Shown here: positions 20,874 through 44,223 of the stretch, piece after piece | Position numbering within the stretch: position 1 is the stretch's first letter | Layout: every line of letters starts with the position of its first letter | Virus record (IMG/VR): IMGVR_UViG_3300024346_000004 | Source of the DNA: a virus | Taxonomy: Duplodnaviria; Caudoviricetes | Reading direction: 5' to 3' (one strand) | Length of the DNA: 64,000 nucleotides | Notes under the pieces: model-generated | The model's input: the letters and a program-made list of their open reading frames with translations, nothing else | Database searches by the model: none | What the model was told of the DNA's origin: nothing | Translations under genes and position numbers: made by a program

Positions 20874-23279
20874 TCAGACTAAAGTAATTTTAGCATATAC
20901 ATCAGTACTTGGTAAATAATGAGAAGCTGTAAATCTTCTTTTAGCACCTAACATATTAGGCCCGACACCATTTATCCAAGATGATCCATTCCAATATTGA
21001 AAAGAACCATTTATATTTTCTGTGCTGTATGCTGTAAATACTTCTTCATCTGATTCTGATAGGTAATATGTTATCTTTAAATTACCCAAAGTATTTAGTA
21101 CACTTGTTTGTTCAAATCCTATAATTGATGATGAAGAATTAGAATCATATAAATTCCATTCAAAACCAGTTGGCAAATCATCATCTACAAAATAAGATAT
21201 TGATAATCCATATATTCTATTAGGCACGGATGCTTTACCTAATACTCTAAATTCAAACATGAATTGTATATTATCTTTAGGCATTATAAATGACATGTCA
21301 AAGCTATCATTTAACAGACTCCAATCACCAGTATCATCAGATATACCTTCTGTTCTAAAGTATACTCTAAAAGGTTCTGGCATAGATCCTAAATCATGAC
21401 TACCTAATATTTCTGGATGATGCACTAATAATTTATTGAATTTAGTTATATGACTTGTATCAATAGAATGAGTAATAATTCTGGCATTATTTCTCGAAGC
21501 AAATCTCCAATCAGCTTCTCCTGGGAATACGCCTAATTTATATTGATTTGCTACATAATACCAAAGGCCATCTGATATATTGAAGTTTAAACTTTCTCTA
21601 AGATGCGAAACAGTATCTTTTGATGGCATTCTATAATCTGAATTTTCACCATTAATTTCTCCAAATTCAGTATAGTAATAGGGGTAATTTGTGTCATATG
21701 GCAATACCGCATTTGTAGATCCAGAAAATAACATTTGTTCTAGGTTTGGTATATATCTTGCATTAGATGGCCCTACATTATTATAGCCTCTATAAGCATT
21801 CCCTAGAGACCTTACATAACCATGATCTTGGCCAAATAAATCAGCATCTTGTTTTAAATCATTTAAATCTATTCTTTGTAATACTGTAGCACTTCCACTT
21901 CTAAAATAAATATTATGTTTATTTCTTCCTGGACCAGTTGGTAAGCAAAACATTCTTAAAGTATCAGCTCCATTGATGCAGTCATAACTTTTAGTTATAA
22001 ATTTAAAAGCACTAGTTGATTCTCCAGCTGTAAGAGTAAGAGGAGCTTCAGCATCAAAACAAGCAATTCTGATTGTGTTACCTTGGTCTATTAAAACATA
22101 AAATATATGTTCATCATTAGATGTCTTTGGTAATGCAGCTAATGACCAACCATTTATTATAAGATTAGTTCCTGGATTTATTATTCTGTAAGTGGCTCTA
22201 ATTCTATCAACAGTAGTAGCAAATGGAACAGTATTATTGTGTTTCATGAATGTAAAATTCATGCCTTTTGTTATATAAACTCCACCTAAATTATAAGGGC
22301 TTGTATTCCAATAATTTGCGCTTATCATACTTACTTCTTCAATAATGTATGGTGAATTTTGAGGATATGTTTTACTCAATGTTTCAGTAAGTGTTAATGA
22401 TGTATCTGAAATAATAGATGCTACTTCATACCATTCTGTAATAGTTTCCGGATTAGTAGATCCAAACCCAATTCTACTTCCTATGCTAAATTTTAAAGAA
22501 CTAAATTTAGTATTTGTACCTGTTACAGTATTACCCGAAACTGTAACATATCCATCAGATGAGGAATCTACAAATATATTAGCATCATATATATACATAT
22601 TATTAGAGACTCTAAAAAATATATTTACTACTCCGCCTTGATAGAATTTATTTTCTTTACGATTATAGATCATATATAGTATATTTTGAGTACTGGATAC
22701 ATTTGTCATAAATATATAATCTAAATTTTTTGTGTATCTTATAACTTTAAACATAAAATTAAATGCATTGTTATAATAGTTTGCTGCATTAAAAATATGT
22801 TCTAATCTTAATGGTGATACATAATTATCATATTTATTTGCACCTGAATATCTATTCATAAGATATCCAAGATTTACATAAGATGAATCATAACCTGTAG
22901 AATTATAACCTTGATGAGTGATAGAAGTGGGTGCTGTACCAATATCGTCATAATGAAAATGATCGTATATATTAGCTAAAAATACATAAGATCCATTCAC
23001 TAATTTATATAGTTTATAATAATTAGTTAGTTCAGATTGATTCCAAAATATTCTGACATAATTGGATGAAGATAAGGATGAATTTGAATTATATGTAATA
23101 ATTTCATCAGATAAATCAGATTCACCATCATTTGTTACGATTGATAATTTATAACTATATGATGTATTACCAGGTGTTCCAATATTATCATATCTACTAA
23201 ATACAGGAGCTTTTACAGGAATATAATTTCTATAATTTAAGCTTGAATCAAATGTAAAATCTATACTTTCAATAGCCAT
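20874..23279 (-). CDS. Array paralog 6 (801 aa; core scaffold only)
   Basis: FN3-like YSYKLS..YDDIG; GSRIGFGSTNP..PYIIEE; PEPFRVYFRT.GI.DD.G.W..IQFMFEF; C-terminal GAKRRF. Confidence 0.7.
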   Translation of the reverse strand: MAIESIDFTFDSSLNYRNYIPVKAPVFSRYDNIGTPGNTSYSYKLSIVTNDGESDLSDEIITYNSNSSLSSSNYVRIFWNQSELTNYYKLYKLVNGSYVFLANIYDHFHYDDIGTAPTSITHQGYNSTGYDSSYVNLGYLMNRYSGANKYDNYVSPLRLEHIFNAANYYNNAFNFMFKVIRYTKNLDYIFMTNVSSTQNILYMIYNRKENKFYQGGVVNIFFRVSNNMYIYDANIFVDSSSDGYVTVSGNTVTGTNTKFSSLKFSIGSRIGFGSTNPETITEWYEVASIISDTSLTLTETLSKTYPQNSPYIIEEVSMISANYWNTSPYNLGGVYITKGMNFTFMKHNNTVPFATTVDRIRATYRIINPGTNLIINGWSLAALPKTSNDEHIFYVLIDQGNTIRIACFDAEAPLTLTAGESTSAFKFITKSYDCINGADTLRMFCLPTGPGRNKHNIYFRSGSATVLQRIDLNDLKQDADLFGQDHGYVRSLGNAYRGYNNVGPSNARYIPNLEQMLFSGSTNAVLPYDTNYPYYYTEFGEINGENSDYRMPSKDTVSHLRESLNFNISDGLWYYVANQYKLGVFPGEADWRFASRNNARIITHSIDTSHITKFNKLLVHHPEILGSHDLGSMPEPFRVYFRTEGISDDTGDWSLLNDSFDMSFIMPKDNIQFMFEFRVLGKASVPNRIYGLSISYFVDDDLPTGFEWNLYDSNSSSSIIGFEQTSVLNTLGNLKITYYLSESDEEVFTAYSTENINGSFQYWNGSSWINGVGPNMLGAKRRFTASHYLPSTDVYAKITLV

Positions 23280-26200: not shown

Positions 26201-26605
26201 AGCTGTAGTACCTACACCAAAATACAGCCTTTCAGATCCTCCACCTTGCGAAAGATAAACAGAAATATTATGGCCAGCATCACCAATAACAAAAATCTTT
26301 TTATATGTGGCTTCAAATGCTACAGTTTTATATACCCAAATAGAAAATGTAAGAGAATTAAATGGAATAAAAATTCTTGTATTTTCACTATAGTCATTAC
26401 TTCCATCAAAAGTAAGCCCTCCTCCATTAGAGGCAGACCATGTAGGACCATTAATTAAAGTTAAATTTCTTTGTGAAACTAAATCGTGAGCAATATTACC
26501 CATTTGATCATTAAAAGGATAACAAGCAATTAATCCATGCGTAACTGGGTTATTGTAATTGATTGTAGATCCAATGGGCGGTCTATATGATGGGTATGTG
26601 CTCAT
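23279..26605 (-). CDS. Array paralog 5 (1108 aa; N-terminal LamG + core)
   Basis: YRPPIGS..GLIACYPFN LamG start followed by the shared core motifs. Confidence 0.72.
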   Translation of the reverse strand: MSTYPSYRPPIGSTINYNNPVTHGLIACYPFNDQMGNIAHDLVSQRNLTLINGPTWSASNGGGLTFDGSNDYSENTRIFIPFNSLTFSIWVYKTVAFEATYKKIFVIGDAGHNISVYLSQGGGSERLYFGVGTTAGQTNPIYNTGLLGNTWYHLVGTWNGSVVRLYVNGKLQAQGNNTGIWPGGYRNYPLRVGYGYGGEYFNGTVRDFLIFDRALNIDEIQSLYDNPKSVYAEPISYSLPVTNYRTLGAPAISTGESFGNNYLNGPIRFYLNSIQAPTVPQNINIKKNNVLKLSNKKSKIIEYDFNKETQFANYKSLDNPISSVTVFGTSGSTTYSYRVTAYDSFGESTSNQIIINNGNSTLNSSNFNRITWKSLRNVTGYKIYGRTKDNERLLASVTNTNYYDDIGSATPTTLFPSINTSGYNPNKLNLGPLIKKYTGEKHYDNFVGPKKVYHIPLDYVGNWTDLIRVFEYNDDFNYVLVYYSSSAGQIRQLYLFKHFKKIDEFLYVGRLDLNLSPTSNMTVYGGPLAELYYHNNGTVSVSGTSVTGVNTSWVSDRIAVGARIGFGSTEARFITTWYDITAINSNTSITINASAGTINSNTPYVIEELRIMASSRQTVSPFNQAGLYVAKGLHFGLFRINLGNSIPMATTVDNQRAVYRLTHPTTPPNDMYIGTDEKYTNTTHFVYGNNYIASRTNRFYKFNVRASLTDLVAGTSTIAALAMTANVFAQNSQTYFLSRVHTPKSGPYANRNIMITVDNSWNYIVDVDKIKNNATDIYLDKMKFMRQGGENYAILESRTTPDQNCYDNNLDLYFATVNRQSFLYRFEGLINIGITDKYSSNIAGSSHESPIYKFPLNGDYNYVWNLPIYQNSDEGLHYFNVHLQGRKNSVLIWPQYAEACIAELTKNRLVLPKLSTMNATLYKKVYVQNSLNLYDEAYGIRPDPYKIYVRTMGIDDDSGKWTLIENNDMSAIQPADNIQFMFEFKIMKKIMVFARLYSLSLSYETDEYLPKELTFSLQDTDLNNNIIGFKQKFLFESLNYLAIEIYDKQNDYLIFKQLSTESTYGYFQYYNNGWVNGIGANIIGTRRRFVVTSSMPVTSYNIKIYRGI

Positions 26606-29600
26606 CTTATTTTAATTTTTACTTTCCCTAAAGAATCTAAAACTCCTGTATTAAATACAAATCTTCTCTTTACACCAGTATAATTCGTTTCATCCTTAAA
26701 ATCTAAATGTAATACACAATATTTACTATAAGAATTATTTCTGAAATTATTCCATTGTGTGTATATTTTTGTATCTAGTAAATAAATATCAGTCACACCT
26801 ATTGCTTGAGATGTGTAAATATAATTAGATACATCATTAAATCCATTAATAGCTAAGATACAATATCCAGGACCAGGACTGTTACCCGTAAGTATTCTGA
26901 ACGGATGATAACCAGCTGTAGCATAATATGTTGCAACTACTGGTGTACTAGAGGCTGATGCAAAATATATTAAAGAGTTTGCTGCTGAATAATTTTCTTC
27001 TAATGCAGCAGATCCGACATATAATCTACCTTCATCATCATTAGCTAAAGAAATAGAAACTGTTTGATCAGTAGTAACATATAAATATCCGAAAAATTCA
27101 TAACTTGTATATTCTGGTACAGCACTATTATTCATATTAGTTACAACAGTAGTTGCAGTAGGTGCATTCGTTTTGAAATATGATAAATTACCACCCCAAT
27201 AGCTTCCAAATGTTTTTCTTGTAAATCCAACAAGACTACTTCCATCCGGAGCTGAAGTTGCTGTTTGTATTGAATTTAATGCATATCCTTTTAAAATAAA
27301 TAAATTATCTAGATATCCTTTCATATAAGAATTTACATTTGAAATATTTCCACATCCAATATTTAATGTATTAGTAGTGTTATTAAATATTGTAGTATTT
27401 GTAACTTTATTTTTTCTTGTCCCATTTAAAAAGGTACATATTTCTCCATTTTTTCTAAAAACAGAAATCCTATTCCAATCATTTAATAATTCTGATAAAT
27501 TGCAGATTTCAATAAATGTATTAGCACTACTATTCCCAATATAAAATACTAACTTATCTACACTAGAATTTGTTTCTTTCCCAATTTCCCAACCACTATC
27601 TCTACCTGCTCCCCCAAAACTCAAAATTCTAAAAGATGATCCGCCAAAATCAGATAATGAGAATGGTTTATAGAAAAATTCAATATGAAAATCTGTGTCA
27701 AAATTATAATCCCTAGAATTACCAGTTGATATATAACTGTTATTGAAATAAACTGAATTTGCACTGTTTTTCTTTTGTGATGAAATAAATGTATTATTAG
27801 AATTAATTATTTTTTTACTACTTGACTTGTCTGAAATTTGTCCAGTAGTCCATAAGTTCATGTATGTTTCTAATTTTCCATACGTAACATTTTCAGAAGA
27901 TTGACTAGCATAAAGAGTATCATTGTTGTAAATATCAATAGTATATGGTAATCCTGTATTTAGCATATGATTTTGGTTTAAATAAATTGTATTACTATTA
28001 CTAATTGTGTTTTTAGTATCAAAATCAAAATCAATAGCTGTGTCACGATTATAAATAACGGTCAGGCTATGAATTCTTGCATAAATTCCTGATCCTCCAA
28101 TAGTTTTGAACATGATCTTGAATTGAATTTTATCAGTTGCAGTAAAAGATGATAAATTCTTTGCATCAGATATTAATGTCCAAGATCCTGAATCATCGAC
28201 CATACCAGTGTTTCTAGCATATATTTTAAAAGTATCAGCTGTTATTCCTTGTTCCAAATCTCCAAGATAATCATCATATTCTATAAATAATTTATCAAAT
28301 CCAATATTATCTGGGCATGAAATTATCGGAGTTATTGCAAAACATTTAAATTTATCCGCTAAGGTATAATCTGCACAATAGATTTCAGGATAAATAGCAT
28401 TATTGTCTGTTCTATAGTATATGCCTTCAACACATACACCATATTGTCTAACTTGGTTTCTTAATGTTGAGTATGAGTTTGGGCGAATAGTGTTATCCAT
28501 TGAGTCTCTATAAAGACCATACCCACCTCCGAAACCTATAAATCCATCTGAAGGTCTATTTGTAACACTGAATTCTAATATTTCACATTTATTGCCCTGC
28601 CTATAAGAAAGATATCTACCCATCCCAAATTTATCAGTGAACGGGTCATAGGACATATCCATATAGGAAGTTAGACCAATAGACTCGTCATTCATATTAG
28701 TAACGACATTTGCTCTTTCATAAATGTAACTTTTCCCATTCTCGATCGAATATTCTGGGACTCTAAATAAATAACGATAATCATAATGATAATAAAGTGA
28801 ATTTACGCCTTTGCCTGTACTGTGATTGACATTAGCAAAACATCCTACTCTACTATCTCTACCCATGACATTTAAGGGACTATGATCCACTTCTAATGTT
28901 TTGAATAAATAAGCAGATGTTGATCTTCCTGATGATAAACCTGTGAGAGGCGCTCTAATATTAAATTTGTAAATAGAGCCACGTAAGTTACTTGATATGT
29001 TTGATATCATAGTATACATATATTGTGTCTGATTATCAATTTTTGGGCCTAAAAATGCGAAAGCAGAATTATACATAGTAGATGTCATAGCATCTGATAA
29101 TATGTATGTAGCTCTTTGGTTATCTACAGTAGTAGCCATTGGTACTGTAAAGTTATTTAAATCAAAGAAATTGTAATTAATTCCTTTAGTTATAAAAATA
29201 CCGTTGTTAGCAGCAACGTAATTTGTTTGAACAAGATTTTGAATAAATCTGATTTCTTCAATTACGTAAGGTGTATTAGCTGGTACATTATTTTGTAAAG
29301 CTTCTGTTATAGTAATATTTGTATTTGAATTAATTGCAGTAATTTGATACCATGTTTTAATCAAACTAGCATCTTTAGAACCAAAACCAATTCTAGCCCC
29401 TACTGCAATTTGATCAGTCACCCAAAGAGTGTTAGTTCCTGTTACAGTAGATCCAGTGGCAGATATCGTTCCAATGTTATGTCTGTCTACAGTCACTTTG
29501 AAAAAATCATCAAAATAGTTGTTTGGTCTCGGTAAATAGATTCTTCCTTTATAATACTTGTCATCTGTTTTTGTATTATGTTCATATAAACCTATTGTAT

Positions 29601-31086
29601 TGTAGTTGCTATTTGTGTTTTGATTTGTAAACAACCAAGTTATGTCATTACTATACTTAAAAGCATCAATCATCCAAGAACCAACTGCAGAATAGTAATA
29701 AGCACTATATAAAGCTTGATTACTCATTGTGGATAGATAATTTTTTGATCTACTTGTTTTATCAGTATAGAGTTTAATATATTTGCCTAAATTGAGTTTA
29801 TTAGGGTGATATCCTGTTGAGTTAAAACTTTTAGGTTCTTCGTTTAATGTTGTTTGTCCTATATCGTCAAAATGATTAGCATCTCTCAATACATATAGTA
29901 ACTGATATTTATTGTCTACATATTTATAAATTTTGTAATATGTTGCAAAATCATACATATCCCATGTCAATCTAACAAAATTACTAGATGATAAGGTTAT
30001 ATTTCCATTAGAAACAGTTATTGTATTTGATGGTAAAGATTCTCCATCATCATTACAGGAAGATATTTTATATAAATATTGAGTACTGCCTGTTGTGCCA
30101 AAGACTTCACTTGTAATATTACTAGGTGATAGTATTGGAATATAATTAGTTGTCTTGATATTCGCATCAAAATCAATTCTAGAAGATAGTTTTGGTTCTA
30201 ATAAATTATTTAAATTCAGTTTACTATTACCAAAATTTTCTGCTGATGAAATTGAAGGTGAAGAAATAGTAATTCTACCGGGAAAAATATGGCTTCCTAA
30301 TGATTCAGCTGATGTGATACTTGGAACTTTTATTTGATTTCTTAAGGATACATAATATTTATAAGCTGGAGGAGATTCGATTAATTGGTAAGGATTTTCA
30401 TGTAAGGATTTAATTTCAGAATCAGTTAATACTTTATTAAAAATCATTACATAATCAATATAACCTTTAAAAGTTCTTGAACTAGGATCAGAGTTGTACC
30501 ATCTCTTACCTATAGTTAACGGATATGCATTAGGCGTGACATTAAATTGAAAATTTCCACTTTGCCATAATGTTCTTAAATTGCCATCATAAGCCATTCG
30601 CATTATAGCACTAGATGATGTTTTTTGGTATGTATTAGTAAATGTGTACCATATATTATTGTAATAGTTAATGTTAGTAGCAGCATATGGATAACCAACA
30701 TCAAACCATGACTGTGTGTTTATATACCAGAATGCTAATTCTTCATCTGTATCACTAACACCCTTGCCTAAAACATCATTCCACCTAGATTGAATGTCTA
30801 ATGAGTTTACTCTTACAAACATAGATACAGCATTTGGTGAGCTTAGGGTATTAGAATCAGGGACTTCAACATAATCATTAACTCCATCTAAGAATAATGC
30901 ATTATTAAGGAATGAAGCACCATTTTTGAGAACTCCATGATTCCCATTTCCACTCAAATCATAGGCAACATTTCCTCCTTGTTCATTAAATAGATAACAA
31001 GCCATTACATGTGTAGCTAATGGGTGATTTAAATTTAAAGTGGAGCCTAATGGTGGCTTATAATTATATTGTGAGTAATCTAACAT
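26602..31086 (-). CDS. Array paralog 4 (1494 aa; LamG + core with nested LamG/PA14)
   Basis: Shared core; PA14-like FGYLY..LANDDEGRLYVG..GYHPFRI inserted near the C-terminus. Confidence 0.72.
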   Translation of the reverse strand: MLDYSQYNYKPPLGSTLNLNHPLATHVMACYLFNEQGGNVAYDLSGNGNHGVLKNGASFLNNALFLDGVNDYVEVPDSNTLSSPNAVSMFVRVNSLDIQSRWNDVLGKGVSDTDEELAFWYINTQSWFDVGYPYAATNINYYNNIWYTFTNTYQKTSSSAIMRMAYDGNLRTLWQSGNFQFNVTPNAYPLTIGKRWYNSDPSSRTFKGYIDYVMIFNKVLTDSEIKSLHENPYQLIESPPAYKYYVSLRNQIKVPSITSAESLGSHIFPGRITISSPSISSAENFGNSKLNLNNLLEPKLSSRIDFDANIKTTNYIPILSPSNITSEVFGTTGSTQYLYKISSCNDDGESLPSNTITVSNGNITLSSSNFVRLTWDMYDFATYYKIYKYVDNKYQLLYVLRDANHFDDIGQTTLNEEPKSFNSTGYHPNKLNLGKYIKLYTDKTSRSKNYLSTMSNQALYSAYYYSAVGSWMIDAFKYSNDITWLFTNQNTNSNYNTIGLYEHNTKTDDKYYKGRIYLPRPNNYFDDFFKVTVDRHNIGTISATGSTVTGTNTLWVTDQIAVGARIGFGSKDASLIKTWYQITAINSNTNITITEALQNNVPANTPYVIEEIRFIQNLVQTNYVAANNGIFITKGINYNFFDLNNFTVPMATTVDNQRATYILSDAMTSTMYNSAFAFLGPKIDNQTQYMYTMISNISSNLRGSIYKFNIRAPLTGLSSGRSTSAYLFKTLEVDHSPLNVMGRDSRVGCFANVNHSTGKGVNSLYYHYDYRYLFRVPEYSIENGKSYIYERANVVTNMNDESIGLTSYMDMSYDPFTDKFGMGRYLSYRQGNKCEILEFSVTNRPSDGFIGFGGGYGLYRDSMDNTIRPNSYSTLRNQVRQYGVCVEGIYYRTDNNAIYPEIYCADYTLADKFKCFAITPIISCPDNIGFDKLFIEYDDYLGDLEQGITADTFKIYARNTGMVDDSGSWTLISDAKNLSSFTATDKIQFKIMFKTIGGSGIYARIHSLTVIYNRDTAIDFDFDTKNTISNSNTIYLNQNHMLNTGLPYTIDIYNNDTLYASQSSENVTYGKLETYMNLWTTGQISDKSSSKKIINSNNTFISSQKKNSANSVYFNNSYISTGNSRDYNFDTDFHIEFFYKPFSLSDFGGSSFRILSFGGAGRDSGWEIGKETNSSVDKLVFYIGNSSANTFIEICNLSELLNDWNRISVFRKNGEICTFLNGTRKNKVTNTTIFNNTTNTLNIGCGNISNVNSYMKGYLDNLFILKGYALNSIQTATSAPDGSSLVGFTRKTFGSYWGGNLSYFKTNAPTATTVVTNMNNSAVPEYTSYEFFGYLYVTTDQTVSISLANDDEGRLYVGSAALEENYSAANSLIYFASASSTPVVATYYATAGYHPFRILTGNSPGPGYCILAINGFNDVSNYIYTSQAIGVTDIYLLDTKIYTQWNNFRNNSYSKYCVLHLDFKDETNYTGVKRRFVFNTGVLDSLGKVKIKIR

Positions 31087-31511
31087 TATAGGTGAATAAC
31101 TAGTCTCTTAGTTCCTGAAGTAGTGAATAAAATATCGCCTAAAATCTGCCCTAAACCAGCATCAGTCCATGTAGCCCCACCGTCTACAGATCTTTCTAAA
31201 TATAAAATTACATTACCATTAGAAGATACTGGTGCTGTTACTGTTAACTCAACTTCAGCTCCGATATATGCATTAGCTAAATTATCAATAATGTTAGAAT
31301 ATAAATACCCAAGATTTCCCACTGATGTTGCTCCACCTAAAGGAACAAATGAAAGGTTTAATATTGTTGAGAAAGATGAATCAAAAATTATTTCACCCGC
31401 ACTACTAATCTTCCATGGTCTGATTCTAAGTACTACCCCACCCGCAGTACTAATTGTTTGACCAGTTCTATTTTCTACTGCAAATCTATATGTAGGTCCT
31501 AAAATACTCAT
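31086..31511 (-). CDS. Small beta-sandwich cassette protein (paralog of 40618-41037)
   Basis: MS.LGP..RF.V.N.TGQTI..G.VILY.ERS.D.G.T..D.GLGQ..FTTSG.KR..HL shared between the two. Confidence 0.7.
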   Translation of the reverse strand: MSILGPTYRFAVENRTGQTISTAGGVVLRIRPWKISSAGEIIFDSSFSTILNLSFVPLGGATSVGNLGYLYSNIIDNLANAYIGAEVELTVTAPVSSNGNVILYLERSVDGGATWTDAGLGQILGDILFTTSGTKRLVIHL

Positions 31512-35191: not shown

Positions 35192-35193
35192 AA

Positions 35194-38100
35194 CTAAAAA
35201 TTAAATTTATCTCTAAAGTAGTTTGACATTTCTAATACTTCTGCATCTGACATAGTTCTATTAACAACCATCATCGCATATATTCTTCCATCTGAAAATG
35301 GATATAAAGGATAGTTTGATGAATTCCCAATAGAGAAAAACCCAAATAATGTTTCCAATGTAGCATTAACTCTATTAGTTATAAAAAATTTCTGACCATC
35401 TTTGTACATTCTAAATCTTTCATATCCATAAATAGTAGAAGAGTTAGACGTATTACTGTAAGAAAAAGTCATTACTGTATTTTCATCATAATTTTCTACA
35501 TAAAATCTCGGTGCTGAGTATGTACTTTGCCAGTTATCAGAAGTATAATAATATCTACTATTACAGTTATAAGTTAATTCTGTACCTCTCCCATAATATC
35601 CATATACAGGAGTAGCAGATCCATGGTATAAAAGCATACAGTTGTCAGAAACACCATATTGATTAGGCACAGTTTGATTTCTGATAACAAAAAATATTGT
35701 AAAATCTTGATTATAAAATGGATATGATTTAGCCAGTGTATTTGCCGCTACTGGAGTAAAGAAATCATTTACAGAAAATGTTGTAAAATATCCAGCTTTA
35801 TTCCATTCAACATGTCCTTGAGATTGGAAATGATTACCATATCCACTTAAGTCATACCAAATATTTCCAGACTCAGGATAAGATTTCTTTTCTGAAGCAT
35901 CCAAATATAATACTACATTTTTTAATATAGCATAATCTATATTTGAAGAATATATTCTATTAGGTAAAGTATTAAAAGCTAATTTGGTATCTGACAATGC
36001 TTTCGTAACTTCTACTACTTCCACATCATCGTATATAGATTTAGAACCCAAAAATAATGTGTTTCTTGAAAAAGGTACATTATTTATAAAATTAGTACTT
36101 GTACCTGTTAAAGTTTTCCTATTAGTGTAAGGAGTATATACATAACCATATAAGTTTGAAGTAGATGTAATACCAGGCCCAGATACAGTAAATAAAGTTC
36201 TTCGATCTCCAGCACAAGAGTTCATAATACGTATACTATGATATTCTCCACCATTTAAATTTACAGAATAAGAAACTATTCCAGTGTTAGTGTATATATT
36301 TCTATTAATTTTAGTAAAACCAGAATCTGCAGTATTGCCTATCCACATATATCCAGTTGTCCAAGCTTGATATGTAAAAGTATATGAACCAGTTGTTGGC
36401 GCATAAAATTTCCCATAAAAATCAATTGTATATCCATTTATGCTAGCATGATAAGGTATATCAAAGTTGGTTACATGCTCATAATCTTTCATTAATTCAC
36501 CATTATTATGATCAAAATCTCTATTCTGATCATAAAAACGATAAAATCTTTCTCTCAAACCTGGCACATTAATATTTGAAGTACCAGGATCGATACTGAT
36601 TGTTCCTTCACTATAATAAATAGAGGACGGTAAAGTTTTTCTTACAAGCCCAGTAATTTCATTATCTAGTTTTAAATTAACATCACTATAGATACGAGAT
36701 ATTTCATTATTTGTAACTGATTTGCCGATAATTCTTACTTCATAAATTTTCCCATAAAAACCATAGTTCGAATAACCAGAATTTCCAATTTTAAAACTAC
36801 TAGAAGCTAAAGATAAAGTTGGTGAAATATTTTGTGTTTTATTTAATTTCCCATTTATATATAATGAATAATTTGTTCCTGTAAAGTTTATTATAATATT
36901 GTAAATATATCCAGGTTTAATATTTCCATCAGATATAATAACGCTTGAATTTCCAATCCAGAAGTTAACCTTATAATCACTTGAAATATATAAATGATAA
37001 AAATTATTACCTGTAGATCCATTATTTCTAGATAATAAACTCATATTACTAAAGCTAATGTTTTCATCAACCATAAAAGTAATACTCATACATAAACCAT
37101 TACTATAAAGCTTATTGAATAATGTTGATGTAGCGGTTATAGAAGAATTACCAGATAATACCCATGGTCTATCTATTCCTGTGCTTCTTGTCACATTATC
37201 TAGTATTAAAGTATTGTTATAATCAGATAGATCGTTATCATTAAATCTATCTAATCTTAATAAATCCCATTTTGCAGTATATATGTTATAAATTATTTTT
37301 GCTGTTGAATTAAAAGAATAAGTATTAACATATCTCATTCTCTTTTCAATAGCTTGAGAACCTAATCCATTGACCCATGCGTTATTATAGTATTGAAATT
37401 GTCCATATGTATTATCATCACTTCTTTGTGTGTAGATAGTATTACCAGATATTGCATCTTTAGCTTCAATTACTACTAAGGGTTCAGATTCATATAATAC
37501 ATAATTTTTTTTATATAATTCTTTTTGTTTAAATCCTACTACATTATATAAAGTATTAGAGTCAGACAAATTCCATTTAAATTCTGGGGAAATTATATTT
37601 TTTGTCTCATAAAATAAATCTAAATTATATATTTTACGAGGTATAGCAGAATGTGCCATCATAACAAATTCAAATCTAAATTGACATTTATCTGTAGCTT
37701 TAATATCTGATAAATCATGCATTCGATTTAAAGGTATCCAAATGCCTGTGTTGTCTTCTATACCTTCCGTTCTTATATATAAATTATATTCAGCTGGTAA
37801 TTTAGTAAATCTATCGTCACCTTCGCAAAAATTATCTGATAACATTATTTTAGATAATTTTCTAGCATTATATGTAGAAATGACAGGTGTTATTACAAAC
37901 GCATTATATTTTTTCGCAAACAATTCATCAGCTTTGTAACTTATAACTTGCAATGGATTGAATTGGTCTGTGCTTTCACGGGTAATAAATATTAATCCAT
38001 TTGCAATGTGTGTAAGAGGAGCTAAAGACCAGTTGTAATCGTATGCTACATCATATACTAACTTATTTTGAGGATATGAATAGTGAGCAGATAAATATCT

Positions 38101-40617
38101 TCTTTTGAGTTTAATCGCATCTCTTAAACCTGGCTTATATCTATAAAAACAAAATTGTCCATAGCTATATTCCATGCCATAAAACATATCTTCTTCAGGT
38201 AAATATCTCTGATGTCTCAAACTCCACCATCCGCCACCTACTGTAAAGCCTCCATTACCGAATACACCTGAATATTCGTAAATTATCACATTATTGTTTG
38301 GTTCTAAAAGTGGTTTTGTTGGAAATCTAAAATTTCTTCCATAGATAGCTAAATATAAACATTCTGTATCTTTACCAGCACCAGAAATAGTTGTTGCTAA
38401 AATTAATTTACCCGTATTTGCTGGAGGCGCATTTATAGTAGCAAATGTATTACTTCTAGCAATGAAAGCTGATGTTGTTGTTCCACTGCTTAATGATGTC
38501 AAATCAGCTCTTAAATTAAATACTAATAAATGATTACCTGTGGATATATTATTCTGCAAACTTACTACATAGACATATTGAGTATTGTTATCTATCCTCG
38601 GTCCACATACAAAATTAGGATAATAATAAGATTGATTAACACTATCATCTAAATAATATGAAGCTTTTATTCTGTCAACCGTGGTAGCAGCTGGAATAAA
38701 TGCTATTTTTTCATTAGCAAAATCAAAATAACTTAGGCCTTTTACGACAAATAATCCTCCTTTTGTTAAGTCAGAACCATTAAATCTAGCTGTAACTATC
38801 ATCAATTCTTCGATTACGTAAGGAGTGTTTGCTGGATAAGAGTTTGCAGTATTTGTTAGAGTAATTGAAGTATTAGAATTGATTGCTCCAATTTCATACC
38901 AATCTGTGACAAATTGAGGAGTATCTGAACCAAATCCAATTCTGTATCCAACACATAATTTTTGATCATTCCATGTAGTAGATGATCCAGTAACGGTTGT
39001 TCCTGAAACAGTTACAGTCCCATTATTTATAACATTATAACTAGCATAAGGCTTGTCGTATGGTTGTAAATTTTGATTATTAGGAAAATTAACATATGCA
39101 TTTCCAGCATAGTCTATAGTATTTGTTCTTTTGTCGTAAATGTGTAAGTGAAACCTAGCAATAGTCCAGTTTCGCCATTCATCTGTAATAATCCATGTTA
39201 TATCATCAGACCAAGCAAAAGCTTCTCCTAAACCAGGATACAACTGAAGTACACCATGGTTATAATCATATCTATGTTTGATAGATATGTAATTATCTAG
39301 GTATTTAGGGCCTGAGAATAAAAAATGTTCTTCTGAAACATTTAATTTTTTATGATCATATCCCGATGTATTTCTCGTTACAGGAATTATATTTTGTAAA
39401 GTGATGCCAATATCATCATAATAATTATTGTATATATCAGTAATTAATTTGATATTATTTCCTGTCCGACCATATAATCTATAACCTGTTGCTTTTGGTA
39501 CTTTAGTCCATTTTACTCTATTATAATTTGTTGTATCTAAAGTGCTATTGCCATTTGATATTTTAACAACAGATGATGGTAATGTTTCTCCATATTTGTT
39601 ATATGCGCTTATTTGGTATGCATATTCAGTGGATCCTGTTGTTCCAAATGGTGTAACAGAAGATATTGAGGGAGATAATATAGGATTTAAATCTGTTACA
39701 GGTAAATTGCTATCAAATCTAATACTCTCTGCTAATAAACCACTCTCTGGTGTATCTAAAGAATTATAGGGTTTACCAAAAGACTCTGTTGATAAAATAG
39801 AATTTACACCTAATGTTACAGGTCCAGGCATAATAGCAGATCCCATAGATTCCGCTGATGTAATAGAAGGAGCGTATAAAATCCCTTGTTGTCTATATGA
39901 ATAATATTTTAAGGATGCTGGTGGATTGATAAATGCAAATGGATTCTCGTCTAAAAGTCTAATTTCTTCATCTGACAAAGCTCTGTTATATATATAAATT
40001 TGATATATATGACCTGAAAAGTTGTCAATACCTCCGCCTCTTCTGCCAATTCTTAGGTTATGTGCTGGAGAATTGATAACAGAAGGCACGGATGCTGTAA
40101 CTTCCATAGCTAAATTTGCATTTACATATGTCCTTACAAAATTACTAGGACTCCAAGTACCACATGCAAAATTTAAATTGCCATCACAAACATTTTGAGC
40201 AGAATAGGATTGGGCAGAGTTAACAGTAAAACCGACCCCACCAACACTACCACAAGATAGATTATATCCATAAGAATATGTTCCACTTGATTTATCTATT
40301 ATCCATTTGTCAGCAACAGTAGTTTTAAACCAAGCTAATACCGATAATCCAGTAGTTGGTAAAGTATAATTATCATTGGTAAGTTCAATATAATCATTAG
40401 ATCCATCAAAAAATATCGACCCATAATCTTTTGGAAAAAATGCCGGTCCATTAATTAAAGTTCCAAAAGTCGGCCTATCACAAAGGTCATATACTCTTAA
40501 CCCAGATCGTTCATTAAATAAAAAACAATGCACTAAGCCTTCACTTAATGGATGATTCCAATTAATTGAAGACCCATGTGCTGGTTTGTAATTATATTCT
40601 GAACTTCCTGGGAACAT
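35194..40617 (-). CDS. Array paralog 2 (1807 aa; LamG + core + LamG + PA14 + LamG)
   Basis: YKPAHGS..HPLSEGLVHCFLFNE; shared core; C-terminal extension with FYAPTTGSYTF and LYLDAS..SYP..WYDLSG. Confidence 0.72.
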   Translation of the reverse strand: MFPGSSEYNYKPAHGSSINWNHPLSEGLVHCFLFNERSGLRVYDLCDRPTFGTLINGPAFFPKDYGSIFFDGSNDYIELTNDNYTLPTTGLSVLAWFKTTVADKWIIDKSSGTYSYGYNLSCGSVGGVGFTVNSAQSYSAQNVCDGNLNFACGTWSPSNFVRTYVNANLAMEVTASVPSVINSPAHNLRIGRRGGGIDNFSGHIYQIYIYNRALSDEEIRLLDENPFAFINPPASLKYYSYRQQGILYAPSITSAESMGSAIMPGPVTLGVNSILSTESFGKPYNSLDTPESGLLAESIRFDSNLPVTDLNPILSPSISSVTPFGTTGSTEYAYQISAYNKYGETLPSSVVKISNGNSTLDTTNYNRVKWTKVPKATGYRLYGRTGNNIKLITDIYNNYYDDIGITLQNIIPVTRNTSGYDHKKLNVSEEHFLFSGPKYLDNYISIKHRYDYNHGVLQLYPGLGEAFAWSDDITWIITDEWRNWTIARFHLHIYDKRTNTIDYAGNAYVNFPNNQNLQPYDKPYASYNVINNGTVTVSGTTVTGSSTTWNDQKLCVGYRIGFGSDTPQFVTDWYEIGAINSNTSITLTNTANSYPANTPYVIEELMIVTARFNGSDLTKGGLFVVKGLSYFDFANEKIAFIPAATTVDRIKASYYLDDSVNQSYYYPNFVCGPRIDNNTQYVYVVSLQNNISTGNHLLVFNLRADLTSLSSGTTTSAFIARSNTFATINAPPANTGKLILATTISGAGKDTECLYLAIYGRNFRFPTKPLLEPNNNVIIYEYSGVFGNGGFTVGGGWWSLRHQRYLPEEDMFYGMEYSYGQFCFYRYKPGLRDAIKLKRRYLSAHYSYPQNKLVYDVAYDYNWSLAPLTHIANGLIFITRESTDQFNPLQVISYKADELFAKKYNAFVITPVISTYNARKLSKIMLSDNFCEGDDRFTKLPAEYNLYIRTEGIEDNTGIWIPLNRMHDLSDIKATDKCQFRFEFVMMAHSAIPRKIYNLDLFYETKNIISPEFKWNLSDSNTLYNVVGFKQKELYKKNYVLYESEPLVVIEAKDAISGNTIYTQRSDDNTYGQFQYYNNAWVNGLGSQAIEKRMRYVNTYSFNSTAKIIYNIYTAKWDLLRLDRFNDNDLSDYNNTLILDNVTRSTGIDRPWVLSGNSSITATSTLFNKLYSNGLCMSITFMVDENISFSNMSLLSRNNGSTGNNFYHLYISSDYKVNFWIGNSSVIISDGNIKPGYIYNIIINFTGTNYSLYINGKLNKTQNISPTLSLASSSFKIGNSGYSNYGFYGKIYEVRIIGKSVTNNEISRIYSDVNLKLDNEITGLVRKTLPSSIYYSEGTISIDPGTSNINVPGLRERFYRFYDQNRDFDHNNGELMKDYEHVTNFDIPYHASINGYTIDFYGKFYAPTTGSYTFTYQAWTTGYMWIGNTADSGFTKINRNIYTNTGIVSYSVNLNGGEYHSIRIMNSCAGDRRTLFTVSGPGITSTSNLYGYVYTPYTNRKTLTGTSTNFINNVPFSRNTLFLGSKSIYDDVEVVEVTKALSDTKLAFNTLPNRIYSSNIDYAILKNVVLYLDASEKKSYPESGNIWYDLSGYGNHFQSQGHVEWNKAGYFTTFSVNDFFTPVAANTLAKSYPFYNQDFTIFFVIRNQTVPNQYGVSDNCMLLYHGSATPVYGYYGRGTELTYNCNSRYYYTSDNWQSTYSAPRFYVENYDENTVMTFSYSNTSNSSTIYGYERFRMYKDGQKFFITNRVNATLETLFGFFSIGNSSNYPLYPFSDGRIYAMMVVNRTMSDAEVLEMSNYFRDKFNF

Positions 40618-41037
40618 TTATAGATGTACGATTCTTCTTTTAAGTCCAGAAGTTGTGAAGTTTAATATAGCAATAACTTGACCTAATCCATTATCAGGAA
40701 AAGTTGTACCGTCATCTAGAGATCTTTCAATATAAAGAATTACATCACCATTTGCAGATGCGGGAGCAGATACAGTAAATTCAATAGTAGCACCAATTAA
40801 TTTAGCAGTACTATTATCAATTGCAGCTGAGTTAAGATAAGCTGTATTAATTAAAGTAGTAGGAGAAGCTGGAGTTGTACCAAGGTTTAAAGGTACTGTG
40901 GCACTTCCATCAAATGTGACAGAAGCATCATTAGCATATTTCCATCCTCTATATTTGACAACAATACCACCAGAAGCAATTGTTTGTCCAGTTCCATTAT
41001 AAACAGAAAATCTAAAATCGGGTCCTAAAGCACTCAT
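40618..41037 (-). CDS. Small beta-sandwich cassette protein
   Basis: Clear paralog of 31086-31511; directly precedes a LamG-start paralog. Confidence 0.7.
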   Translation of the reverse strand: MSALGPDFRFSVYNGTGQTIASGGIVVKYRGWKYANDASVTFDGSATVPLNLGTTPASPTTLINTAYLNSAAIDNSTAKLIGATIEFTVSAPASANGDVILYIERSLDDGTTFPDNGLGQVIAILNFTTSGLKRRIVHL

Positions 41038-41039
41038 AT

Positions 41040-41504
41040 TTATCTCCTAAAAGCATTACCAATATCAATATGTGTAATGCTGGTATTTTTTCCAAATAAA
41101 ATTTCAGCTCTTGATAACATTTCTTTCGGGGCTAAATTTGAAATATCAATTTTATCCTGTTCAGAAATTACTTCGTTTTCTATGAGCGTATCTAAAACAT
41201 TTTGTACAGCTGGTTCTTCATATTTAAATGTTTGCAATCTAGATGACAATAATCTAAGTATTAAAAGAGCTGCATTCTGAGCTGGATTATCTGTTTTAGA
41301 AACAGATTCAATTAATAATATTTTTCCAGTAGTTAACATATAATCTTCTAATTTATCAATGCTAATTACTGTTTCTCCATCAATATACTTGTTATTTAAT
41401 AAATCAGCTATTCCTACATGATTACCCATTTCAAGTAATATAGAATATCCTAAATTTTCAGGATCTAAATTAATTTCATTACTGAGCTCACCATAACTTA
41501 TCAT
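41040..41504 (-). CDS. Helical phage protein (L..EI..DP..LGY motif)
   Basis: ELSNEINLDPENLGY..IADLLN..SRAEILFG. Confidence 0.55.
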   Translation of the reverse strand: MISYGELSNEINLDPENLGYSILLEMGNHVGIADLLNNKYIDGETVISIDKLEDYMLTTGKILLIESVSKTDNPAQNAALLILRLLSSRLQTFKYEEPAVQNVLDTLIENEVISEQDKIDISNLAPKEMLSRAEILFGKNTSITHIDIGNAFRR

Positions 41505-41513
41505 TATTTCACC

Positions 41514-44009
41514 TTACACTATTTCTATTTTTAATTTAACTTCTTCAGACATTAATATATTTGCGGTTAATACAAATCTTCTTAATGTTCCTACTGTATT
41601 TGTACCAATACCATTTGTCCAAATATTACCTTGAGCTAAATATTGGAAATTACCAAAAGTAGTTTCTGAAGAAGTTTGACTAAATACCAATTTATTATCT
41701 TTTTTTCTAATGTATGATATTTTTAAAGTAAGATTATTCGAATATACTTTACTTTGCTCAAAACCATATATATTTTGTGAAAGATCAGTTATATTACTAT
41801 TAAATTTAAAATATTTAGGAAGCAATTCTTCTTTTTCTGCCAATAACGTATATGAATGAATTCTAGCTGGACACATTGTTAATCCAAATATTTTAAAATT
41901 AAACATGAACTGTATAGAATCTTGTGCTCTAACAGTAGATAAATCATATGGGAAATTCAATCTTGTCCATACACCCGAATTATCTTTTATTCCTGTAGTT
42001 CTGTAAAATACTCTAAATGGATCAGGCTGTACTGGGAAATCTTCAGACGCTACTTCTTCAGCATAGTTAACTAATAACTTATTAAATTTACTAACTGAAT
42101 ATGTGTCTATTTCAGGACAAATTACTCTGTTTTCATATTCCATAGGTGAATCATTTTCTCCACCCACAGGCATTGCAAAAATATTATTGTGTATTGCATC
42201 TTGAATATTTGTAACTGTATTAAAAGTATATATTATTCCATTTTTGACTGTGTATGTTTTATTATAGCCATTGTAAGGATGGTTGAATGTATTCTTGGGA
42301 TTCCATTTTCCTGGAGTATATAAAAATTGTCCACCTATTGCATAAACTCCTTGCAACTCATTTCCGAATTGAAATTTAAAAGCTGTAAATCCATACCCGC
42401 TGCTTGCCGTGTAAAAAAAATCACTATAATCATCATAAACAATTTCAAATGAATTTCTTATATCATATATTCTATGGCCAAAATTAATAATTGGGAAAAA
42501 AAATGTTTCACCAGGCAAATTCAATGCGTTTTTAACAATATAACTTTCTTCTGTTCTGATAAAAAAGTCCACGCCTCTATAAATGAATGAAGTTTTATTT
42601 GCATATGGTCCAGATTTCATTACGACAGGAAACAATCCTCCATATCCATTACCCCATGAATTTACTAATAATTGACCAGTAGTAAAATCATAGCAACTAT
42701 AGTCTGTACCAGCATCTAATAATAAATCTTTACGAATGTTATATCTTAATATTCTTGTTCTATTATTTACATTACTATTATCAACCTGTTTGACATATAA
42801 ATATTGTGTATTATTATCTTTTTGAGGAGTCACACACATGCCAAAGTAAGTATTTGTTGATGTAGGTACAAAAGATTCTTTAATATTGTAAGTGGCTTTT
42901 TGCCCATCTGTTCTATTAGCAAAAGGAATTGTAACAGAACCATTTATCTTAAAATCATCAATATTAAGCCCTTTGACAATATTGATACCATATTGTGCTA
43001 CAGGTAAAATTATCAATCTGATTTCTTCAATTATATAAGGAACATTAGTTTGATTAGCAGACGGTAACCTATCAATTGTAATACTTGAATTACTATTAAT
43101 TCTATTTACATAATACCAGGTAGTAATTTTTTCAGGATCTGTAGACCCAAAACCAATTCTAGCTCCAACAGAAATTTTCTTATCAAAAAAAGTAGTATTT
43201 ATTCCTGTAACTTCAGCAGTAGATGTTGATAGATTGACTAATCCATCTGTTGTTTTATCCATAGATGCGATAAGGTCATAATCATAAGCAGATTGCCCAA
43301 TAGGAGTGAATGTAATATTGATAAAACCTTTGTGCGTAAATGTCCAAGTAAATCTATCAAAAATTACTAAGTGATATTTTCTTATCTGGCTTCCGCTCAT
43401 TTCATTTCTTTGAAATATTAGTAAATCATATCTTTCTGTGTAACTAATAACATCATTGGCGTAATACGTATAAAGAGCTGGCGGTGAAGTTGAATTATAA
43501 ATAACTCTGAATTCATCAAATATATGAAACATCTCATGAGGTTGATTTGAAATATAATTGTTTTCAGGGGTTGTGTTACTTGTGAATAATTTCTGGAATC
43601 TACCTATATTTAATTTACTAGGGTCATATCCAGTAGTGTCTTTTACAGGTAAAGATCCACTAGGTGAAACAGTACCGATATCATCATAATAATTGTTGTT
43701 TACAGTAGCTATAAGTTGCTCTGAATTAACAGTTCTTCCATACACTTTATAACTTGTAGCATAACTACTTGATGTCCAGGATATTCTGATGAAATTATTA
43801 CTACTTAGCGTTGCATTTCCAGTTATTACTACAGGATCGCTAGCTAATGTCTCACCAAATTCACTAACAGCACTTACTCTATAGGAATAAATAGTAGACC
43901 CTGAAGCTCCAAAAGCCTGTAATGAAATTACAGGCTTCGGAACGGAATTTAGTTGTGTTATTGTGCAGCTTGAATCAAAGTTATATTCAAACGCTTGTGT
44001 TGTTGCCAT
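41514..44009 (-). CDS. Array paralog 1 (831 aa; core scaffold only)
   Basis: YSYRVSA..YYDDIG; VGARIGFGSTDP..PYIIEEIR; PDPFRVFYRT.GI.D..G.W; GTLRRFV. Confidence 0.7.
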   Translation of the reverse strand: MATTQAFEYNFDSSCTITQLNSVPKPVISLQAFGASGSTIYSYRVSAVSEFGETLASDPVVITGNATLSSNNFIRISWTSSSYATSYKVYGRTVNSEQLIATVNNNYYDDIGTVSPSGSLPVKDTTGYDPSKLNIGRFQKLFTSNTTPENNYISNQPHEMFHIFDEFRVIYNSTSPPALYTYYANDVISYTERYDLLIFQRNEMSGSQIRKYHLVIFDRFTWTFTHKGFINITFTPIGQSAYDYDLIASMDKTTDGLVNLSTSTAEVTGINTTFFDKKISVGARIGFGSTDPEKITTWYYVNRINSNSSITIDRLPSANQTNVPYIIEEIRLIILPVAQYGINIVKGLNIDDFKINGSVTIPFANRTDGQKATYNIKESFVPTSTNTYFGMCVTPQKDNNTQYLYVKQVDNSNVNNRTRILRYNIRKDLLLDAGTDYSCYDFTTGQLLVNSWGNGYGGLFPVVMKSGPYANKTSFIYRGVDFFIRTEESYIVKNALNLPGETFFFPIINFGHRIYDIRNSFEIVYDDYSDFFYTASSGYGFTAFKFQFGNELQGVYAIGGQFLYTPGKWNPKNTFNHPYNGYNKTYTVKNGIIYTFNTVTNIQDAIHNNIFAMPVGGENDSPMEYENRVICPEIDTYSVSKFNKLLVNYAEEVASEDFPVQPDPFRVFYRTTGIKDNSGVWTRLNFPYDLSTVRAQDSIQFMFNFKIFGLTMCPARIHSYTLLAEKEELLPKYFKFNSNITDLSQNIYGFEQSKVYSNNLTLKISYIRKKDNKLVFSQTSSETTFGNFQYLAQGNIWTNGIGTNTVGTLRRFVLTANILMSEEVKLKIEIV

Positions 44010-44223
44010 CCATCTCTTCCAGTGTACGATTTCCAGTAGCTACAAAAAATGCAGGAAAAGCAGCTATAGGAAATTGAGTAGCGTCTCTCTTTAGATATAC
44101 TTCTACCATATCTAAGGCTTTATAATCTCCAGTATATTTCACACAATATTCAGTTTGTGTTAATACTGGTGTGTCAGCCTCAAGATGGTAAATCACATCT
44201 TCAGGTTTTACATCTTCATTCAT
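43987..44223 (-). CDS. Small hypothetical protein linking gyrA to the array
   Basis: ATGA overlap with the gyrA stop; SD GAGG; overlaps the next gene by 23 nt. Confidence 0.55.
   Translation of the reverse strand: MNEDVKPEDVIYHLEADTPVLTQTEYCVKYTGDYKALDMVEVYLKRDATQFPIAAFPAFFVATGNRTLEEMDGNNTSV

Follow-up and report, generated by a model that had tools for sequence, protein, structure and literature searches.

The virus record IMGVR_UViG_3300024346_000004 of IMG/VR (Duplodnaviria; Caudoviricetes) was analysed over a stretch of 64,000 nucleotides (nt), called here the window, which carries a tandem array of six related genes at positions 20,874–44,009. A previous reading of this DNA, made from its letters alone (hereafter the sequence-only reading), had delimited six open reading frames (ORFs) in the array; all of them were recovered with exactly the same coordinates and lengths, i.e., 831, 1807, 1226, 1494, 1108, and 801 amino acids (aa), on the minus strand (Table 1). 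The best explanation for these genes is a lineage-specific tandem expansion of one undescribed family of phage structural proteins.

Organization of the Array and Its Shared Core

The six co-directional genes are interleaved with three small ORFs (154, 139, and 141 aa), and the gene junctions measure only −4 to +9 nt; hence, the array is regarded as one packed operon. Promoter and terminator scans revealed no enrichment over shuffled sequence.

Table 1. Positions and main characteristics of the features in and around the array (window coordinates).
Feature	Position	Strand	Description
gyrA	44220..48038		carries a LAGLIDADG intein
Paralog 1	41514..44009	−	831 aa; FN3-like domain and core, without lectin module; no Pfam match; included in the MAFFT alignment; dN/dS 0.05–0.18 by segment vs. 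the close relative
Small ORF	41040..41504	−	154 aa; in the array; 94.8% identical in the close relative, dN/dS 0.065; no significant family match
Small ORF	40618..41037	−	139 aa; predicted small β-sandwich; 50% identical to the 141-aa ORF; dN/dS 0.085
Paralog 2	35194..40617	−	1807 aa; N-terminal LamG, linker repeats, FN3, core, C-terminal LamG-GLEYA/PA14-LamG extension (about 35197–37350)
Paralog 3	31511..35191	−	1226 aa; N-terminal LamG (body 34574–35071, the swapped cassette), FN3, core; GLEYA/PA14 in a propeller loop (about 32789–33097)
Small ORF	31086..31511	−	141 aa; paralog of the 139-aa ORF; dN/dS 0.039
Paralog 4	26602..31086	−	1494 aa; N-terminal LamG, linker repeats, FN3, core; nested LamG and GLEYA/PA14 (within 26605–27969)
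Paralog 5	23279..26605	−	1108 aa; N-terminal LamG, linker repeat, FN3, core; phrog_1591 match on the mini-domain
Paralog 6	20874..23279	−	801 aa; FN3 and core only; copy used for modelling
Mini-domain (RIGFGS..WY..PY.IEE), paralog 6	22302..22565	−	residues ~243–320 of the 801-aa copy
Mini-domain, other five copies	24746–25009, 29221–29484, 33413–33676, 38770–39033, 42987–43250		
Giant LamG-rich protein	13022..20863	−	same operon, downstream; 2401 aa from the first ATG; not of the core family
Arm-like protein	12552..12956	−	134 aa; last gene of the operon; phrog_644 (6e-41)
Repeat-rich protein	52691–58498		1935 aa

The six genes are true paralogs. Their MAFFT alignment is colinear over the whole ~800-aa core (28–34% identity to the first sequence), which bears out the shared, ordered blocks listed in the sequence-only reading. 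Invariant or nearly so in all copies are the FN3-like unit, the mini-domain (GT.TG..RIGFGS..WY..PY.IEE), the ATTVD motif, and the C-terminal R..G..D..G.W..Q...G..W..G motifs; the mean pairwise identity amounts to 50% in the mini-domain, 45% in the FN3-like unit, 31% in the C-terminal domain, and 19–24% in the rest of the propeller described below. The family profile spans each copy, from position ~12–19 to ~688–707 of 708. The orthologous copies in a close relative (a 300.5-kilobase (kb) IMG/VR contig, 80–88% identical at the protein level over the array) match the profile at E-values of 1e-132 to 1e-232, so chance resemblance can be excluded.

One claim of the sequence-only reading did not survive, namely, that the long segments between the conserved blocks do not align. 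These segments are colinear and covered by the profile and, according to the AlphaFold model, represent diverged blades of a single six-bladed propeller. Of the proposed fixed scaffold with variable interiors, the conserved core and the exchangeable lectins therefore stand, whereas the interiors belong to one conserved propeller fold and are not spacers.

Predicted Fold of the Core

The ~800-aa core consists of an FN3-like sandwich, a six-bladed β-propeller with the inserted 80-aa mini-domain, and two C-terminal β-sandwiches. The AlphaFold2 model of paralog 6, obtained with a 32-sequence alignment, is all-β, with a predicted local distance difference test (pLDDT) value of 85.9 and a predicted template modelling (pTM) score of 0.78. 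In this model, residues ~155–594 form the propeller, as judged by VIA-align, which superimposed 260–300 residues on known six-bladed propellers (Z 16–17.8; root-mean-square deviation 3.4–4.0 Å), e.g., DFPase-type scaffolds, NHL domains including that of teneurin, GH93, and a pseudaminidase. The last 205 residues, modelled separately (pLDDT 90.6, pTM 0.55), fold into two small β-sandwiches, for which no specific structural relative was found (best Z 6.7) and Foldseek returned nothing at E ≤ 0.001. The FN3-like sandwich is confined to this clade and a sister clade of jumbo phages.

The impression that this architecture does not belong to a described family was upheld by each of the searches made. 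Thus, Pfam gave no match in 32 members of the core family (E 0.01), PHROG matched only the mini-domain or LamG and contains no whole-protein family for the core, and sequences of solved structures yielded nothing significant for the profiles of the whole core, the C-terminal domain, or the small-ORF family. Likewise, tblastn with two family members against 50,697 GenBank phage records remained without a match. PF11134, the Pfam family of the podovirus nozzle, gave no match, and the likeness to tail-fibre PHROGs is limited to the mini-domain.

The propeller fold is open to an enzymatic interpretation, in which it would be a glycosidase or depolymerase equipped with LamG and PA14 as carbohydrate-binding modules, and the array would encode six tailspike-like polysaccharide-degrading enzymes. 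The best structural matches do include a GH93 arabinofuranosidase/arabinanase (Z 16.7–17.0) and a pseudaminidase/putative neuraminidase (Z 16.4–16.6), but the non-enzymatic six-bladed propellers (NHL, teneurin) score equally (Z 16.6–16.8). The endosialidases of phi92 and K1F are among the Foldseek matches, the propeller evolves faster than the presumed anchor (see below), and it is common knowledge that LamG and PA14 often accompany glycosidases. Still, few polar residues of the propeller are invariant among the six copies, paralog 6 deviates at several positions that hardly vary across the family, and Pfam detected no glycosidase family in the six copies or in the 32 members. An array of six such enzymes is considered unlikely.

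Foldseek also pointed to the nozzle, or tail-hub, proteins of podoviruses (P22 gp10, Sf6 gp8, T7 gp12), and the core could be their distant relative, i.e., a ring-like part of the tail with the paralogs filling six-fold positions. Its top matches in PDB are nozzle proteins (LME-1 9efk_M, 2e-07; Pa223 9nwi_Y, 1e-06; Kp7 7y22_Y, 1.9e-06; T7 9jyz_P), and the top matches in BFVD are annotated as “stabilization protein” or P22 Gp10-like. However, their template modelling (TM) scores are only 0.16–0.28, generic propellers score higher in VIA-align, and no nozzle protein enters the VIA-align top 50 for the whole model. The order of a propeller followed by a sandwich is the same, and structural alignment of the first C-terminal sandwich to its counterparts in the Sf6 gp8, Pa223, VP1, and SU10 nozzles (their C-terminal domains) gave Z 5.4–5.8, but values of 5–6 correspond to the background level. 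PF11134 (Phage_stabilise) was matched neither in the 32 members nor in five jumbo genomes at E 1. The copy numbers seen so far (1, 2, 3, and 6) all divide six; at the same time, arrays of two, three, and six copies are at odds with a single nozzle gene, as is the co-occurrence of the core gene with sheath and tube genes, and bulky lectin modules plus a fibre-type anchor domain would be ill-suited to a ring lining a channel. A nozzle-like role appears quite unlikely.

The Mini-Domain as a Putative Attachment Module

The mini-domain is the most conserved segment of the core. It represents an insertion in the propeller, since the propeller alignments span both sides of residues ~243–320. Profile comparison identified it with the first ~80 positions of two PHROG families: phrog_1591, annotated as “tail fiber protein”, was matched by 21 of the 22 mini-domains of the family (best E 8.5e-11), and phrog_1980 by 20 of the 22 (best E 1.6e-09). 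Weak matches in PDB (E 0.23–0.88) all fall on the N-termini of tail proteins, i.e., an F2-pyocin side fibre, a depolymerase, and a distal tail protein. In the two PHROG families, the domain is N-terminal on a fibre of about 450–480 profile positions, whereas here it is situated between propeller segments, and no fibre shaft is predicted.

A lone mini-domain was found in a 1284-aa ORF elsewhere in the genome of the close relative (G001:C1:147269-147544). It is also duplicated near the N-terminus of an ~800-aa form from Patescibacteria (L020:9995-10258). In view of these two occurrences, the mini-domain behaves as a mobile module.

Lectin Modules

The LamG and PA14/GLEYA modules occupy four positions, i.e., the N-terminus, a blade loop, a site nested in the last sandwich, and the C-terminus. 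As anticipated from the sequence, their content differs from copy to copy: Pfam detected none in the 831- and 801-aa copies (paralogs 1 and 6) and placed them variously in the other four, all of which bear an N-terminal LamG. The curated Pfam cut-offs are 27.6 bits for PF13385 (Laminin_G_3), 26.2 bits for PF10528 (GLEYA), and 24 bits for PF07691 (PA14). Paralog 2 exceeds the first of these at 115.4 bits (3.4e-33), with GLEYA at 8.3e-09; its C-terminal extension, searched alone, gave LamG in two matched stretches (62 bits, 9.2e-17) and GLEYA (2.6e-09). The N-terminus of paralog 3 matches LamG at 40.7 bits (3.4e-10), and its GLEYA module (2.7e-09; residues 723–801) is visible as an insertion at columns ~811–957 of the MAFFT alignment. 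In paralog 4, LamG was found in two matched stretches (56.9 bits, 3.6e-15), and its insert alone yielded LamG at 33.5 bits (5.7e-08) and GLEYA at 28.7 bits (1.7e-06). This insert precedes the last ~25 residues of the C-terminal sandwich, and the KRRF motif resumes past it in the alignment. Paralog 5 carries LamG at 79.4 bits (4e-22).

GLEYA thus passes its cut-off in paralogs 2 and 3 (36.1–37.7 bits) and in the insert of paralog 4, and PA14 itself stays below its own in the paralogs (16–18 bits). A ~22-aa motif, I.S.E.(F/L)G, joins LamG to the core in one or two copies in the LamG-bearing paralogs (residues 252 and 274 in paralog 2) and recurs in the tail of the giant LamG-rich protein encoded next to the array.

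Selection and Module Exchange

The 300-kb relative carries intact versions of all six genes and of the three small ORFs, with ratios of nonsynonymous to synonymous substitution rates (dN/dS) of 0.04–0.15; the values are rough, with dS of about 0.7–0.9 in this comparison. All six genes are under purifying selection. By segment, the ratio is 0.066 in both the mini-domain and the C-terminal domain, 0.08 in FN3, 0.10 in the propeller, and 0.154 in the added lectin modules; the gyrA exteins, taken as a control, gave 0.10–0.13. The division into a conserved and a variable part, suggested by the sequence-only reading, is borne out by this gradient, with its lowest values in the mini-domain and the C-terminal domain and its highest in the lectins.

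The same holds for the idea of swappable lectin domains. Scanning the six genes in windows of 40 residues revealed a sole stretch of low identity to the relative, residues 41–206 of paralog 3, corresponding to the LamG body. In the relative, this body is replaced by another LamG of only ~27% identity between flanks that are ~90% identical, and the replacement is just as remote from all other LamG domains of both genomes. Together with the giant neighbour, which is mosaic likewise (six stretches below 50% identity to the relative), this replacement provides direct evidence that the lectin modules are exchangeable.

Metagenome contigs from several lakes, compared over 24010–44009, show joints between equivalent positions of different paralogs, e.g., 26415 to 43133 and 39428 to 43725, although the matched sides measure only 21–66 nt at a likeness threshold of 80%. 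Such joints may reflect relatives with fewer copies, recombinants, or assembly chimeras, and no conclusion was drawn from them.

Operon Partners and Surroundings in the Window

The giant LamG-rich protein encoded downstream of the array matches Laminin_G_3 at 7.6e-84 in five stretches and is assigned by PHROG to “virion structural protein”. Its frame remains open upstream of the first ATG (20227) to about 20863, and this extension, once translated, can be aligned to the relative from the first residue onwards.

The arm-like protein closing the operon was traced to a structurally characterised tail component: the profile of its family (positions 30–134) matched residues 2–105 of the 106 residues of PDB 9d93 chain Ra, the “tail wing arm” gp31 of mycobacteriophage Bxb1, at 4.5e-17. 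In Bxb1, gp31 is an accessory subunit of the tail tip (PMC12646305). Two of the small ORFs, of 139 and 141 aa, code for small β proteins, each directly upstream of a LamG-bearing paralog; these may be adaptors or assembly factors. The nearest ESM Atlas clusters of the 141-aa ORF comprise viral hypothetical proteins of 128–155 aa, and it reaches a TM-score of 0.68 to a cluster with Bbp16 in 14% of its members. Comparison of this ORF by hhalign with the core and arm families indicated no relationship.

The window is recognisable as phage DNA by its PhoH, helicase, and HNH endonucleases and by matches to several PHROG families; intein-containing gyrB and gyrA lie upstream of the array. The gyrA exteins are 74–84% identical between the window and the 300-kb relative, and gyrA of the latter (L158, about 6309-8831) reads through the insertion point without an intein; hence, the presence of the gyrA intein is polymorphic between close relatives. 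Further away, the 1935-aa repeat-rich protein has PHROG matches annotated as “head decoration”, “virion structural”, and “tail fiber” (phrog_2647, 3.6e-66) and is a candidate for another large repeat adhesin of the region.

Distribution and History of the Family

An exhaustive profile search retrieved 590 cluster representatives (50% identity) at E ≤ 0.001, of which 283 passed 1e-30, and confirmed relatives were located in 178 stretches of IMG/VR and in 100 of species-representative genomes. Most members are encoded by single genes of uncultured phages and are ~710 aa long, the modal length of the family, without FN3 or lectins. The copy number varies: the close relative possesses the same six, a complete phage of 479 kb possesses three, three other jumbo phages have one each, and two copies occur in other viral contigs. 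The maximum-likelihood tree, in which the rows of the array copies were flagged for long branches and an atypical amino-acid composition, unites the six copies with their orthologs in a single clade (SH-aLRT, i.e., the approximate likelihood ratio test of the Shimodaira–Hasegawa type, 99) with long internal branches and places the three-copy arrays in separate clades. Hence, the expansion occurred several times independently, the arrays of two and three copies having separate origins, and it is old in the lineage studied here.

A relative of 379 kb displays the order gyrA, arm gene, 80-aa gene, and a single 711-aa core gene, matching the gyrB-gyrA-array neighbourhood of the window, which suggests a single-copy ancestor at the site of the array. 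Its gyrA (L082:6617-9157) probably lacks an intein, since the product is of ordinary size (846 aa) and matches solved gyrase A chains over its full length.

The genes surrounding the core in other phages were clustered from 157 loci. Several myovirus contigs follow the order of an arm-like 140-aa gene (phrog_644), one or two core genes, a 219-aa gene, the tail sheath (phrog_23, 8.5e-69), a 197-aa gene, the tail tube, and the baseplate hub. The arm family occurs within 500 nt of a core gene in 14 other loci, on its upstream side according to the gene maps, and in still other loci genes of collagen-like fibres directly precede the core gene. In 36 loci (e.g., L086, L091, L098, L117:12079-12381), the core gene is directly followed by a ~100-aa domain (M.L..GG....RD.GT...VQGF), absent from the window, which stands alone or forms the N-terminus of proteins of up to 448 aa and looks like a docking domain with variable extensions. 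Two gene families located just downstream of the core gene showed no relationship to each other in hhalign.

Based on this synteny together with the homology of the arm protein and the matches of the mini-domain to tail fibres, the paralogs are suggested to form a tail-associated appendage, with the most conserved piece serving as the attachment domain; the evidence is indirect and comes mostly from other phages.

Certain features would suit decoration of the capsid or neck (Hoc-like adhesins or head fibres) instead of the tail. FN3/Ig-like and lectin modules are generally known to be typical of capsid decoration, the small paralogous ORFs resemble a cluster including cement proteins of the Bbp16 type (the TM-score of 0.68 given above), and the 1935-aa protein with its “head decoration” repeats is encoded nearby. 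In one phage of 70 kb, the core gene resides between terminase and portal, and its place just upstream of the sheath in myovirus contigs is a frequent location of neck genes. Nevertheless, the mini-domain matches families of the tail fibre, not of the head, the homolog of the arm is a tail-tip protein in Bxb1, and the adjacent genes of collagen-like fibres point in the same direction. Decoration of the head or neck is rated as distinctly improbable.

The family is also found in genomes labelled as Saccharibacteria and Paceibacterota. In these Patescibacteria, one or three core genes belong to a conserved operon, in the order of a ~205-aa protein with a twin-arginine signal, the core gene(s), a ~210-aa protein, TatC (PF00902, 4.6e-37), a large dockerin/MG2 protein, and two signal-peptide proteins (L012 (9284-20908), L020, L022, L036, L054, and about 50 other loci). 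In one case, the 590-kb contig with this operon also encodes ribosomal protein L2, at a distance of 21 kb. The Patescibacteria core proteins lack a signal peptide; they may be exported by hitch-hiking on a substrate of twin-arginine translocation (Tat).

By analogy with this conserved cellular TatC operon, the phage proteins could act outside the virion, in or on the infected cell or its partners, e.g., in remodelling or mimicry of the cell surface, and the array does adjoin replication genes in the window. On the other hand, the phage copies are devoid of signal peptides, no TatC or F5 partner was found in any viral locus, and elsewhere the phage-type core genes are embedded in structural modules. 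A role of this kind is deemed very unlikely.

Proposed Function of the Array

The reading preferred here, with a probability only somewhat above one half (about 0.55), is that the six proteins are adhesins of a virion appendage that share an anchor and differ in their lectin modules; the location in the virion, the anchoring via the mini-domain, and the binding of glycans are all parts that we infer. The mini-domain and the C-terminal sandwiches would fix each protein to the virion, probably to its tail; small adaptors, e.g., the gp31-like arm, may mediate this attachment. Glycans of the cell surface would be contacted by the more rapidly evolving face of the propeller and by the added LamG and PA14/GLEYA modules. 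Six diverged copies together with the giant LamG neighbour could provide one particle with several adhesion specificities, which replacement of whole modules might renew. The core may be a mere docking scaffold, as the sequence-only reading supposed; the propeller could itself bind or cleave glycans.

Several observations weigh against the adhesin reading. First, the array sits between the gyrase genes and HNH or unknown genes, outside any recognisable tail module; the sheath, Baseplate_J, and gp25 were not found in the close relative and two complete jumbo relatives, which does not imply that these lack a contractile tail. Second, the 801-aa model differs from classical fibres in having neither a trimerising shaft nor a coiled coil. 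Third, gyrA differs from its counterpart in the relative at least as much as the array does, a pattern not typical of receptor-binding proteins engaged in an arms race. Fourth, the cellular homologs in the TatC operon of Patescibacteria imply that the core family is neither restricted to phages nor intrinsically a virion protein. Finally, no member of the family comes from a cultured phage.

A more far-reaching and rather unlikely variant of the adhesin reading can be conceived as well, in which the six paralogs have retained a common anchor because they share one set of symmetric docking sites, either as competitors or side by side. A mixed, combinatorial crown would thereby be displayed on each virion, a crown of propellers and lectins renewed by cassettes, and in Patescibacteria the same core family would be a surface component exported by hitch-hiking on the Tat pathway. 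If true, this would amount to an undescribed adhesion module that phage particles have in common with the surfaces of ultra-small bacterial cells.

Environmental Occurrence and Significance

The gene of paralog 6 was represented by 69–100% of its sampled 31-mers in 20 sequencing runs of 13 studies, five of which runs may be the source of this DNA, and four studies yielded contigs spanning the full 20 kb of the array compared. No RNA run was among those listed as containing the gene. In some of the lakes, the phage attains a contig depth of 40–70x. The phage is thus near-identical across the lake, freshwater, estuary, and “marine”-labelled metagenomes of these studies. Since it is a cosmopolitan freshwater jumbo phage, its adhesion apparatus is of interest.

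The core represents a sizeable undescribed family, with no Pfam family, whole-protein PHROG, solved structure, or cultured phage; uncultured phages carry it repeatedly in their tail modules, and it turned up unexpectedly in the TatC operons of Patescibacteria. The array itself offers a natural series for studying how a stable fold accommodates lectins in its loops and how close relatives exchange whole modules. Should the model of an anchor with exchangeable heads be true, the family would be a useful marker for receptor-binding genes in metagenomes of jumbo phages.

Comparison with Known Systems

Podovirus nozzles (P22 gp10, Sf6 gp8, T7 gp12; PF11134) share with the core a propeller followed by a small C-terminal sandwich; the proteins described here differ by the lack of a profile match, the low TM-scores, the multi-copy arrays, the co-occurrence with sheath and tube, and the inserted fibre-type domain. 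Propeller glycosidases and endosialidases (GH93, GH33, K1F, phi92) resemble the core in the fold of the central domain (Z 16–17), whereas no sequence match at the family level was found here and a conserved catalytic set is not apparent among the six copies.

A link also exists to the tail wing of Bxb1, made up of gp30 (base), gp31 (arm), and gp33 (brush) (PDB 9d93). The 134-aa protein of the operon is a clear homolog of gp31, and the array looks like an accessory appendage, as the wing is: a derivative of Bxb1 without gp30 was readily recovered and had only a modest growth defect (PMC12646305). At the same time, no homology of the core family to gp30 or gp33 was found, and Bxb1 is a siphovirus of 50 kb.

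Phages with several receptor-binding proteins encoded in tandem provide another parallel; examples are CBA120 with four tailspikes and phiK64-1 with many depolymerases. The likeness comprises paralogous or modular host-binding proteins encoded side by side, the combination of conserved attachment parts with variable binding parts, and the exchange of modules among related phages. Their proteins are trimeric β-helix spikes with N-terminal anchors, whereas those of the array have a propeller body with an inserted anchor-like domain, bear LamG and PA14/GLEYA at four positions, and have no predicted shaft or β-helix. Overall, the use of multiple modular receptor-binding proteins is a known theme, and the propeller-core architecture is an undescribed one.

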